From the NCBI RefSeq assembly GCF_057098645.1, contig NZ_CM169472.1: a DNA stretch of 64,000 nt. One strand, given 5' to 3'. The position numbers are program-made. Below are positions 9,455 through 12,400 of the stretch, piece by piece; the stretch's first letter is position 1; every line of letters begins with the position of its first letter.

Positions 9455-12400
9455 TTATTTACCCCCAATCTTCACAAGAAAAACTGTATTTGACAAACAA
9501 GATACATTGTATGAAAATACAAGAAAGTTTGTTGATGGAGGCGATATGCAAACTCTTTCTGAACGCCTCAAGAAGTGAACCGCCCCGGGTTTCCTGGAGA
9601 GTATTTTATCTGTGAACTCAGGCTGCCAGATCATTATTTCCGATGGAAGCATAATAAGCTTTTTCTGCTTCTGCCGGAGGAATATGGCCCAGCCTTTCCA
9701 GCAATCGTCGATTGTTATACCAGTCCACCCACGTGAGTGTGGCCAGTTCCACTTCTGCACGGTTTTTCCAGCTCTTACGGTGTATTACCTCCGCTTTGTA
9801 AAGACCATTGATGCTCTCCGCCATCGCGTTGTCATACGAGTCGCCAGTACTCCCTGTTGATGCCAGTAATCCGGCTTCCTTAAGCCGCTGCGTGTAGGCC
9901 AGCGATACATACTGAGAACCTTTATCACTGTGATGGATTGTGCCGGACGGCCGACGGGCCCACAACGCCTGCTCCAGTGCATCCAGCACGAATGTTGTTT
10001 CCATGGATGATGAGACCTGCCATCCCACGATGTATCCGGCGAACACATCAATGATGAACGCCACATAAACGAAGCCCCGCCATGTGCTGACGTAAGTAAA
10101 ATCAGCCACCCACAGCTGGTCAGGTCGTTCTGCCACGAACTGACGGTTTACGCGGTCGCCTGCGGCAACGGCTTTCCGGCTGATGGTCGTACGGACCTTT
10201 TTACCCCGGAGAACACCGGCAAGTCCCATAACTGCCATGAGACGTGCCACAGTGCATCTGGCCACTCTGATACCTTCCCGTAACAACTGACGCCAGACTT
10301 TACGCACACCGTATACCTGGTGATTTTCATCGTATACGCGCTGTATCTCTTTCTTCAGCCAGTCATCGTGCTGCGCACGGGCACTGCGTTTATCCGGATG
10401 ATGTCGCTGTTGCTGACAGTGGTAATACGTTGACGGGGCAATATGCAGTTCGCTGCATAGCGGTCCGACCCCGTACTGCTCACGCAGCTTATCCAGCAGT
10501 GGCATCATTTTTTCCAGAGGCGGTCGAACTCCGCCTTCGCAAAATAAGCGGAAGCCTGGCGAAGGATATCGTTACTGCGGCGCAGTTCACGATTTTCACG
10601 CTCCAGCTCTTTCAGACGCTGACGTTCAGCGGTGGTGAGCCCGCCATCACCGCCCCCGGTATCCCGCTCATGCTGGCGAACCCAGACACGCAGAGTCTCC
10701 GGCGTACAGCCAATCTTTGGAGCAATGGAACAAATTGTCGCCCATTGTGAGTCATATTCATCCTGACTTTCCAGAACCATACGAATCGCCCGCTGACGGA
10801 CTTCGGGGGAAAAACGAGTATTTTTAGTCATCCTGTTTACCTCTTTCTCAGGGAGTTTAGTCTCCAGGATTTCCGGGGCGGTTCAACCAGCCAGAAAACG
10901 ACCTTTCTGTGGTGAAACCTGATGCTGCATGGGGGACAGCAGAAGACCTGACCGCCGCAGAGTGGATGTTTGACATGGTGAAGACTATCGCGCCATCAGC
11001 CAGAAAACCGAATTTTGCAGGGTGGGCTAACGATATCCGCCTGATGCGTGAACGTGACGGACGTAACCACCGCGATATGTGTGTGCTGTTCCGCTGGGCC
11101 TGCCAGGACAACTTCTGGTCCGGTAATGTGCTGAGCCCGGCCAAACTCCGCGACAAGTGGACCCAGCTCGAAATCAACCGTAACAAGCAACAGGCAGTCG
11201 TGACAGCCAGCAAACCAAAACTCGACCTGACAAACACAGACTGGATTTACGGGGTGGATTTATGAAAAACATCGCCGCACAGATGGTTAACTTTGACCGT
11301 GAGCAGATGCGTCGGATCGCCAACAACATGCCGGAACAGTACGACGAAAAGCCTCAGGTACAGCAGGTAGCGCAGATCATCAACGGTGTGTTCAGCCAGT
11401 TACTGGCAACTTTCCCGGCGAGCCTGGCTAACCGTGACCAGAACGAACTGAACGAAATCCGCCGCCAGTGGGTTCTGGCTTTCCGGGAAAACGGGATCAC
11501 CACAATGGAACAGGTTAACGCAGGAATGCGCGTAGCCCGTCGGCAGAATCGACCATTTCTGCCATCACCCGGGCAGTTTGTTGCATGGTGCCGGGAAGAA
11601 GCATCCGTTATCGCCGGACTGCCAAACGTCAGCGAGCTGGTTGATATGGTTTACGAGTATTGCCGGAAGCGAGGCCTGTATCCGGATGCGGAGTCTTATC
11701 CGTGGAAATCAAACGCGCACTACTGGCTGGTTACCAACCTGTATCAGAACATGCGGGCCAATGCGCTTACTGATGCGGAATTACGGCGCAAGGCTGCCGA
11801 TGAACTGTCCTGTATGACCGCACGAATTAACCGTGGTGAGGCTATACCTGAACCAGTAAAACAACTTCCTGTCATGGGCGGTAGACCTCTAAATCGTGCA
11901 CAGGCTCTGGCGAAGATCGCAGAAATCAAAGCTAAGTTTGGGCTGAAAGGAGCAAGTGTATGACGGGCAAAGAGGCAATTATTCATTACCTGGGGACGCA
12001 TAATAGCTTCTGTGCGCCGGACGTTGCCGCGTTAACAGGCGCAACAGTAACCAGCATAAATCAGGCCGCGGCTAAAATGGCACGGGCAGGTCTTCTGGTT
12101 ATCGAAGGTAAGGTCTGGCGAACGGTGTATTACCGGTTCGCTACTAGGGAAGAACGGGAAGGAAAGATGAGCACGAACCTGATTTTTAAGGAGTGTCGCC
12201 AGAGTGCCGCGATGAAACGGGTATTGGCGGTATATGGAGTTAAAAGATGACCATCTACATCACTGAGCTAATAACAGGCCTGCTGGTAATCGCAGGCCTT
12301 TTTATTTGGGGGAGAGGGAAGTCATGAAAAAACTAACCTTTGAAATTCGATCTCCAGCACATCAGCAAAACGCTATTCACGCAGTACAGCAAATCCTTCC

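Follow-up and report, generated by a model that had tools for sequence, protein, structure and literature searches.

An intact IS629-group element probably marks the joint of a 1,133-bp cro-to-O deletion in a lambda/434-hybrid prophage of O145:H28-type Escherichia coli

Introduction

The engineered recombineering prophage lambda cI857 delta(cro-bioA) keeps the repressor, pL, N and exo-bet-gam, while cro and the replication functions have been removed, which results in unrestrained pL expression with no replication or lysis. IS629/IS1203 insertions and IS629-associated deletions have been described in prophages of enterohaemorrhagic E. coli of the O157 Sakai/EDL933 lineage (Rump 2011, PMC3271280; Ooka 2009 and Kusumoto 2011, both cited in PMC9943667). 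IS629 lies behind many O157 deletions, and IEE-dependent events can remove from a few nucleotides to more than 40 kb beside the IS (PMC9943667). Of the IS629 copies, 62% are located in prophages; simple insertions produce 3-bp duplications, and the duplication is kept at only 21 of 47 sites in O157 (PMC3271280).

The window analysed here is a 64-kb stretch of an O145:H28-type E. coli chromosome (NZ_CM169472.1), which carries a lambda/434-hybrid prophage with imm434 immunity and lambda-type O-P replication genes at att-lambda. A literature search for IS629 in O145:H28 prophages gave no match. In this prophage an IS629-group element separates the first codons of cro from the 3' part of O, and a sequence-only reading of the window had regarded this structure as a deletion and not as a simple insertion.

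The immunity region

The cI side of the prophage contains the following features.

8290..8358: OL, with three 434-type operators (ACAA-N6-TTGT) at 8290-8303, 8313-8326 and 8345-8358
8409..8813, minus strand: open reading frame downstream of cI; the annotation of phage 434 has 'Hex, repressor protection protein' at this position
8810..9442, minus strand: intact cI repressor of 434 type, 210 aa (match to the PDB 434 repressor N-domain, E 9e-38)
9474..9532: OR3-OR2-OR1 with pRM and pR (from the 434 annotation of OR1-3, pR and pRM, and promoter prediction)

The stretch from cI through cro codon 10 (8810-9575) is 100% identical in DNA to phage 434 over 766 bp, and positions 1-9575 of the window are 100% identical to strain RM13516, whose annotation lists exo, bet and int as intact. 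A pattern count over the whole window gave five ACAA-N6-TTGT operator sites against 1.28 expected, and OR3 (9474-9487) ends in CTGT, as does the OR3 of phage 434. The predicted pR has its -35 at 9490-9495 and its -10 at 9513-9518. The imm434 region is therefore present as far as the 434 cI and the three OR and three OL operators of 14 bp are concerned; a functional 434 cro, of which 10 of 71 codons are left, is missing. That the cI-OR-OL module is intact, as the sequence-only reading had stated, agrees with the operator sites, the PDB repressor match and the identity with phage 434. The deletion leaves untouched cI, pRM, OR, OL, pL, N and the exo-bet-gam-kil-cIII-xis-int operon, and the P and nin-Q region is still present in the prophage. 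The open reading frame at 8409..8813, called as a 134-aa gene in relatives, has zero Pfam or NCBIfam matches, and the name Hex is assigned to it from position only.

Junctions and extent of the deletion

On the other side of OR, the structure is as follows.

9546..9575, plus strand: cro remnant, codons 1-10 (MQTLSERLKK), from reading frame and flank comparison
9576..10885, minus strand: IS629/IS1203-group element of the IS3 family, 1310 bp, from terminal repeats, open frames and domain matches
10886..11265, plus strand: 3' remnant of lambda-type O from nt 503 (codon 168), from alignment to intact relatives
10929..10930, plus strand: site of an extra 18-bp in-frame deletion (IQSGSK) within the O remnant, from comparison with relatives
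11262..11963, plus strand: intact replication gene P (PF06992, E 1e-61; 100% identical to strain C7)

From its start at 9546, cro reads ATG CAA ACT CTT TCT GAA CGC CTC AAG AAG, and the IS terminal repeat (TGAACCGCCCCGGG...) begins at 9576; its first three bases supply a TGA stop, so that the cro frame ends after codon 10. The complete cro of an intact relative aligns with the PDB 434 Cro chain across all 71 residues (E 1.4e-42). The distal terminal repeat (...CCGGGGCGGTTCA) ends at 10885, and the bases flanking the IS are unmatched (AAG to the left, ACC to the right), with no target duplication. Direct reading of the sequence thus reproduced the start of cro at 9546 and its cut at 9575/9576 that had been noted earlier, and alignment as well as sequence agreed on the two flanks. 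The O remnant amounts to 380 nt, comprising 2 nt, 125 sense codons and a stop, in line with the earlier figure of about 126 codons from the end of the gene, while an intact lambda-type O has 900 nt. Only O residues 168-299 are kept in the window, and a Pfam search of the remnant gave no match; intact O has PF04492 (Phage_rep_O) at residues 22-115. As regards the lambda-type replication module, P is therefore retained, while the origin-binding domain of O, the iterons and the A+T-rich tract are absent. The 18-bp deletion in the O remnant, searched with a 46-nt junction query (marker k-mer CTGATGCTGCATGGGGGACAG), turned up in no more than 3 of the 5426 complete E. coli genomes, every time in a truncated O.

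The ends of the deletion were placed to the single base by comparison with LD26-1, C7, phage 434 and lambda. The loss is 1,133 bp, corresponding to nt 34493-35625 of phage 434 (OL657226.1), and the earlier estimate of 1.2-1.4 kb was too high. It comprises cro codons 11-71, boxA/nutR, the tR1 region, pRE, cII, oop and O nt 1-502; the lost part of O holds the DNA-binding domain (residues 22-115), the four ori iterons, which lie at O nt 349-435 in relatives and hence within the deleted stretch, and the A+T-rich unwinding tract. The losses first listed (the remainder of cro, nutR, cII and the N-terminal, ori-containing part of O) all stand, and pRE, oop and the Pfam Phage_rep_O domain are to be added to them. 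No ori iterons were found in the whole 64-kb window at up to 3 mismatches, nor any iteron-like tandem array; iterons elsewhere in the prophage would have spoken against the sequence-only reading.

In phage 434, lambda imm434, lambda and the intact prophage relatives, the two flanks are never contiguous but stand 1,133 bp apart in one colinear block. This comparison supports the sequence-only reading of a deletion, for which contiguity in a natural phage was one of the counter-tests. Simple IS629 insertions in the same module elsewhere have 3-bp duplications, namely AAC in C7, ATC in O157:H7 2571 and GAC in KE51. At the present joint the DNA between the flanks is missing, an intact IS occupies the joint and no duplication is found; missing duplication and missing DNA together indicate a deletion. 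That an intact IS629-group element marks the joint of a 1,133-bp prophage deletion is the best explanation overall, and a highly probable one.

The IS629 copies of the window

The element at the joint, hereafter copy 1, has both imperfect terminal inverted repeats of the IS629 group, starting TGAACCGCCCCGG. On the minus strand, orfA (10505-10831) is open and encodes 108 aa with an HTH_Tnp_1 domain, and orfB (9618-10508) is open and encodes 296 aa with an rve domain and an NCBIfam IS3 transposase match of 316.8 bits. The two frames overlap at 10505-10508, as expected of the two-frame arrangement, and homologous copies carry the annotation 'programmed frameshift'. Copy 1 is 96-98.4% identical to IS629/IS1203 copies in E. 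coli genomes (96.3-98.4%, over the full length, to those annotated by RefSeq as IS3-like IS1203 or IS629 family), and its best full-length match among 5426 genomes is 98.4%. Mismatch maps divide it into at least 3 segments: nt 1-502 are identical to the copy of O103:H2 12009, nt 504-1184 are near the O145 type and the final ~280 nt agree fully with the copy of strain E105, while the right 807 bp have a best match of 99.0%. Among the characters of the group, only the direct target duplication of 3-4 bp is lacking, which marks copy 1 as something other than a simple insertion site and is no argument against its membership of the group.

The second IS629 copy of the window (21380-25333) does have the GCT duplication reported for it earlier. 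It is interrupted by an IS21-family element of 2.64 kb and lies within another IS3-family element, two details that the sequence-only reading had not mentioned, and this second, nested IS block sits downstream of Q.

Related alleles in O145:H28 strains

The early region concerned has been rearranged repeatedly in sister strains, which show at least 6 other deletions or rearrangements, four of them with IS629 at the junction. In RM13516, the IS lies between O nt 227 and nt 841, likewise without a duplication, and cro and cII are kept. C325 has the IS between window position 2026 and O nt 477, RM13514 has an IS629-bounded inversion plus deletion in the same prophage, and in Z1323HEC0399/0422 and a Logan contig the joints carry no IS and reach O nt 481 and 507.

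Five structures, the window's included, share the rare 18-bp marker. Their right end-points (O nt 477, 481, 502, 503 and 507) fall within 31 bp, right at the 3' border of the A+T-rich tract of ori, while the left end-points, placed for four of the five, are scattered (window 2026, 7991, 9575 and 1233 for the structures ending at nt 477, 481, 503 and 507). The IS at O nt 502 and that at nt 503 are 1 bp apart and in opposite orientations. Each of the two IS-less joints lies 4 bp inside an IS-bearing joint, which points to loss of the IS and not to its gain, as would be expected from excision with loss of flanking DNA.

It is unlikely, in our estimation, that the cluster of right end-points is non-accidental and due to repeated IS629 end-targeting with excision, to recurrent selection, or to both. 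Under end-targeting, an IS could insert beside the end of a resident IS or an IR-like sequence and then undergo IEE-type excision with flank loss. Selection, for its part, could favour prophages in which immunity and the Red/pL operon persist while replication has been lost. The idea that O nt 477-507 is a universal hot spot for IS629 was rejected, since unrelated prophages carry the IS at about nt 180, 348, 537 and 585, the positions 180 and 537 being inferred from piece spacing only. KE51 and O157:H7 8368 were likewise rejected as insertions at the same O site because their BLAST pieces are non-colinear; KE51 carries its IS near O nt 585, flanked by a GAC duplication, and O157:H7 8368 has its IS in P. 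An IR-like motif seen by eye at the O site (TGACCAGCC against TGAACCGCC, 7/9) was estimated to be insignificant and was not relied on.

Origin of the deletion

The route that is tentatively preferred, with a probability approaching one half, is an adjacent deletion. An IS629 copy would have come to sit at the 3' border of ori, close to O nt 503, and the DNA to its left would then have been lost up to cro codon 10 in a transposase-dependent event, possibly assisted by IEE. Clustered right and scattered left end-points are what would be expected if an O-anchored IS lost variable lengths of leftward DNA. However, the IS of the window and the sister IS at O nt 477 and 502 point in opposite directions and differ in sequence type (33 mismatches), so that the former is not derivable from the latter by simple leftward deletion. 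Moreover, IS3-family transposition by copy-out-paste-in is not expected alone to yield adjacent deletions (bioRxiv 10.1101/2023.06.07.543989), so this route needs IEE or another repair activity. Alternatively, two direct IS629 copies, one at cro codon 10 (AAG) and the other at O nt 503-505 (ACC), might have undergone homologous recombination; one IS would be removed together with the 1,133 bp, and the one left behind, perhaps a hybrid, would have unmatched flanks. We regard this as the main alternative, somewhat less probable than the adjacent deletion and less likely than not. It predicts exactly the unmatched flanks observed, IS629 copies did recombine in the same prophage of RM13514, as an inversion, and copy 1 is a unique mosaic whose closest full-length counterpart in the 5426 genomes reaches 98.4%; the mosaic is weak evidence because IS629 variants are generally mosaic. 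Against it, two independent insertions in the same orientation 1.1 kb apart are needed first, and the at least 3 mosaic segments, with the right 807 bp matched at no more than 99.0%, do not form a clean two-parent hybrid. In addition, neither of the two hypothetical simple-insertion junctions (...CCTCTGACC|TGAACCGCC and GGTTCA|AAGAGGCGAATT) had a match in 5426 complete E. coli genomes, an absence that counts against the adjacent deletion as well. The two real junctions of the window likewise had no spanning match in these 5426 genomes, and the exact junction k-mers were absent from metagenome_contigs and genome_contigs; thus, the collections searched contain no identified precursor or identical allele. 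On the sequence, adjacent deletion and recombination between two IS copies could each have produced the allele.

Other explanations are far less probable. If cro and O had first been joined by a deletion in which no IS took part, such as illegitimate recombination at the fragile A+T-rich border of ori, and IS629 had then inserted precisely into the joint, this would be in keeping with the joints without an IS at O nt 481 and 507 (Z1323HEC0399/0422, Logan contig), but insertion into an existing joint would make a 3-bp duplication, which is not there, and the position of these joints 4 bp inside IS-bearing ones points to IS loss. No relative with an IS-less joint of cro codon 10 to O nt 503, or within 3 bp of it, was found, and this sequence of events is given a very small probability. 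A similarly slight chance attaches to an assembly artefact, in which two IS629 copies around the 1,133 bp were collapsed into one. The exact junctions are indeed missing from every collection searched; however, complete sister genomes show comparable real deletions at the same locus, copy 1 has private SNPs over its full length and is hence not a consensus of O145-type copies, and two direct copies would be needed at precisely these sites, neither of which occurs in any genome searched. As duplications are present at only 21 of 47 O157 IS629 sites (PMC3271280), a missing duplication alone is no proof of deletion, and a simple insertion with a degenerate or mutated duplication into a naturally so-ordered phage, with nothing deleted, was also weighed. 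This last reading, whose probability is negligible, is already refuted by the sequence comparisons, since the flanks lie 1,133 bp apart in 434, lambda imm434, LD26-1, C7 and many other intact prophages, and since the left flank ends in the middle of the cro frame while the right one begins inside O codon 168.

Predicted effects on the prophage

The lysogen is expected to keep 434 immunity. On SOS induction, the pL operon would be expressed without being turned down by Cro, and the prophage may excise. Replication of the prophage should be unable to start even with O supplied in trans, because ori is gone. Transcripts from pR would run antisense through the IS; the sequence-only reading predicted that the right operon would be unable to run after induction, but the intact pR may read through the IS into 'O-P-ren-nin-Q. 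With nutR lost, pR transcripts could not be N-modified, so that expression of Q and the late genes should be poor, and the nested IS block downstream of Q would probably form a further barrier. The deletion explains the defective att-lambda prophage of this O145:H28-type STEC, which has no origin, no O and no Cro; its 434 immunity and an inducible pL/Red operon should nevertheless persist.

Comparison with known systems

Among natural phages, phage 434 and lambda imm434 (OL657226.1, OM418626.1) are close to this prophage. Identity to phage 434 amounts to 98.4% for the O remnant and P, and the intact relatives among prophages align colinearly with 434 at 98-99% identity; the window differs in that the IS replaces 434 nt 34493-35625 and in the extra 18-bp in-frame loss from the O remnant. 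The resemblance to lambda cI857 delta(cro-bioA) lies in what is kept and what is lost. Unlike that construct, the window's prophage is natural, has 434 immunity and a wild-type, SOS-cleavable repressor, and contains P, nin, Q and the late genes; expression of its Red genes is a prediction.

Copy 1 is the same element as the IS629/IS1203 of EHEC prophages (1310 bp, the same repeats, orfA/orfB and 3-bp duplications), with the same preference for prophages. The outcome is also the same as in IS629-associated deletions of EHEC prophages, namely gene inactivation and loss of flanking DNA with unmatched flanks. In contrast to the O157 cases, the host is of O145:H28 type and the IS mosaic is unmatched at 99% or more over its full length, and the junction pair of cro codon 10 and O nt 503 is absent from the collections searched. 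The sister alleles (RM13516/RM12761, RM13514/RM12581, C325 and Z1323HEC0399/0422) occupy the same integration site in flanking prophage DNA that is 99.9-100% identical, O and ori are destroyed in every one, and IS629 is at or beside the break in most. Every allele has end-points of its own; the IS of RM13516, C325 and L014 is of O145 type and in the opposite orientation, and Z1323HEC0399/0422 have a joint without an IS.

This kind of event is already documented for IS629 in STEC and belongs to ordinary prophage decay, and no new mechanism or kind of element is revealed. The window adds one more allele at a locus that has undergone repeated remodelling by IS629 in sister strains, and such alleles are useful as lineage markers and as a natural record of IS629 and IEE activity.

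The IS629 Copy between cro and O

The prophage occupies the lambda attachment site between ybhC and ybhB/bioA, at roughly 500–42,300, and the right-end 14 kb of the window (ybhF to moaA) is 100% identical to many O145:H28 genomes. At the cro/O junction, a terminal repeat TGAACCGCCCCGGGTTTCC starts at 9576, its first three bases forming the stop codon of a cro remnant, while the paired repeat ends at 10885, giving an element of 1310 bp; to its right follow the 3' remainder of an O gene of lambda type and an intact P. All coordinates of the sequence-only reading proved correct when the cro start, IS ends and O remnant were rechecked. 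The junction carries the following features:

9546 (start), + strand, 434-type cro remnant reading MQTLSERLKK
9618–10508, − strand, orfB, open
10505–10831, − strand, orfA, open

HTH_Tnp_1 and rve domains are present in the orfA/orfB products, which also match an NCBIfam IS3-transposase model, and 9576–10885 shares 96–98.4% identity with E. coli copies annotated as IS629/IS1203 family. The differing 3-bp flanks reported earlier for this copy (AAG left, ACC right) were seen again, as was the perfect GCT duplication around the second IS629 copy. Simple insertions used for comparison carry the 3-bp duplications AAC, ATC, GAC and GCT; for instance, an IS629-like element is simply inserted in the cro–cII spacer of strain C7 (AAC), and IS1203 at the first iteron in O157:H7 2571 (ATC). 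Generally, IS629 duplications are 3–4 bp, were present at only 21 of 47 O157 sites, and 62% of IS629 copies sit in prophages (PMC3271280). IS629/IS1203 is also common in the cro–O–P module of unrelated lambdoid prophages (comparison loci L002, L010, L011, L024 and others), at about O nt 180, 348, 537 and 585, and in P in O157:H7 8368; target preference may account for this frequency, as may selection against prophage replication or a combination of the two.

Extent and Content of the Deletion

Three E. coli relatives, LD26-1 (L003), C7 (L001) and O157:H7 2571 (L002), served as base-level references. The cI–cro–cII–O–P block is unbroken in LD26-1, and the intact block aligns as a single colinear stretch with 99.2% identity to lambda imm434 and 98.0% to phage 434. 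The window flanks are 100% identical to strain C7, and the left flank, running from cI into cro as far as codon 10, matches phage 434 (OL657226.1) at 100% over 766 bp. As the left flank ends at 434 nt 34492 and the right flank begins at 35626, 1,133 bp are absent, slightly less than the 1.2–1.4 kb first estimated. Since the flanks are this far apart in one colinear block in intact relatives and 434, a simple insertion is excluded.

Read off the annotated 434 and lambda records, the lost stretch comprises cro codons 11–71, boxA, nutR, the pRE −35 region, cII, oop and O nt 1–502, so that, size apart, the losses had been listed correctly. The four iterons occupy O nt 349–435 and the A+T-rich tract about nt 436–476, while the right flank starts at lambda 39188, 70 bp past iteron 4; the alignment to 434 and lambda therefore bears out the proposed loss of the iterons. 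Moreover, a search for iterons across the 64-kb window with up to 3 mismatches found none elsewhere, and its tandem arrays were limited to IS-end repeats plus a few short, unrelated examples. The Pfam Phage_rep_O domain corresponds to residues 22–115 of intact O, and the O remnant (residues 168–299) has no Pfam match.

Origin of the Deletion

None of the 5426 complete E. coli genomes contains the exact window structure, nor do the metagenome and species-representative collections. Sister strains carry other lesions of this prophage:

RM13516 and RM12761: cro and cII kept; O nt 227 / IS629 (opposite orientation) / O nt 841, flanks TAG and GCC, no duplication
RM13514: IS629-bounded inversion, whole early region lost
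C325 (L025): window 2026 / IS629 (+) / O nt 477
Z1323HEC0399 and Z1323HEC0422 (L015/L026): window 7991 (inside N) fused to O nt 481, without IS
Draft assembly L014: IS629 (+) / O nt 502
Draft assembly L012: int (window 1233) fused to O nt 507, without IS

The att-lambda prophage of RM13514 (L005, NZ_CP006027.1 831000–860000) is scrambled, with the inversion running from ren to the lysozyme gene between two inverted IS629 copies, and with further IS600, ISEc20 and IS3-family insertions.

At 10929/10930, the O remnant has an extra in-frame loss of 18 bp (IQSGSK) when compared with the O genes of lambda, 434 and C7, which is common to the window, C325, Z1323HEC0399/0422 and both draft assemblies. 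Among the 5426 complete genomes it occurs in three (C325, Z1323HEC0422 and Z1323HEC0399), each time in a truncated O, and no intact O there carries it; it is useful for marking the sub-lineage and may be a product of pseudogene decay.

The sequence-only reading, upheld here apart from the deletion size, had proposed an adjacent deletion or recombination between IS copies, and both match the window. Many O157 deletions have been ascribed to IS629, and events dependent on the IS-excision enhancer (IEE) delete from a few nucleotides to >40 kb beside the IS (PMC9943667), for which a model of "sloppy" strand transfer followed by end joining has been proposed (bioRxiv 10.1101/2023.06.07.543989). We tentatively favor such a transposase/IEE-dependent route, in which an IS would have sat at the O site and the DNA on its left would have been lost, because the right end-points of the five marked structures (O nt 477, 481, 502, 503 and 507, just after the ori A+T-rich tract) span 31 bp while the left ones are scattered, and because each IS-less joint sits 4 bp inside an IS-bearing joint, as excision with flank loss predicts. 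However, the IS at the O end-point occurs in both orientations, 1 bp apart (nt 502 versus 503), and that of the window is inverted and of another sequence type compared with those at nt 477/502 in the sisters, implying that it inserted independently, 1 bp away from another copy.

Homologous recombination between two direct IS629 copies is the somewhat less likely route; in its favor, the IS itself is a unique mosaic whose best full-length match is 98.4%, with no match of at least 99% in any of the 5426 complete E. coli genomes. A copy from O103:H2 12009 shares nt 1–502 of this IS without a mismatch, and one from strain E105 does so for the last ~280 nt; nt 504–1184 closely resemble the O145 type, and position 503 is unlike every copy compared. 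The IS is, however, not a clean two-parent hybrid, and mosaic structure is general among IS629 variants.

Retained Functions and Expected Consequences

O145:H28 RM13516 matches window 1–9575 (ybhC, int, xis, exo, bet, gam, kil, cIII, N, cI) at 100% identity, and the counterpart genes in that strain are annotated as intact. The cI–OR–OL module, earlier described as intact, is indeed so, with a cI product matching the PDB 434 repressor chain (E 9e-38) and these control elements:

8290–8358, OL, three operators
9474–9532, OR1–3 operators
9490–9518, + strand, pR, predicted by consensus scan
Facing pR, other strand, pRM, predicted by consensus scan

An ORF directly downstream of cI (8409–8813, − strand) has no Pfam or NCBIfam match and occupies the slot annotated as Hex, a repressor-protection protein, in the phage 434 record. 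As well, lpxR (lipid A deacylase, Pfam LpxR; 15112–16071, − strand) lies within the nin–Q region but on the other strand; it resembles a cargo ("moron") gene and is present in sister prophages too.

Because OR, predicted pR and cI are retained left of the IS, pR is directed into it, antisense to the transposase genes as previously suggested. Judged from lambda biology, immunity to 434-immunity phages should persist, and once the repressor is cleaved, pL should drive N, kil, gam, bet, exo, xis and int with no turn-down by Cro. Replication would be impossible even with O in trans because ori is gone, while pR transcripts, having no nutR, would not be N-modifiable and would also have to cross the IS.

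Between Q and the lysis genes, a three-level IS nest at about 20650–25950 would probably form a further barrier to late expression:

20729–21472 (orfB) and 25552–25899 (orfA), − strand, outer IS3-family element, broken by IS629
21380–25333, O145-type IS629 with GCT duplication, inside the IS3-family element
about 22196–24834, IS21-family element (2.64 kb), inside this IS629
22295–23293, IstB of the IS21-family element
23067–24713, IstA of the IS21-family element

The IS21-family element has a duplication of about 5 bp (CTTCG), and its end motifs are repeated at 24705–24827.

IS629-associated decay of lambdoid prophages in STEC is a kind of event already well documented, and only the clustering of end-points among sister strains might merit more work. 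The layout of the prophage is similar to that of the engineered lambda delta(cro-bioA) prophage in recombineering strains.
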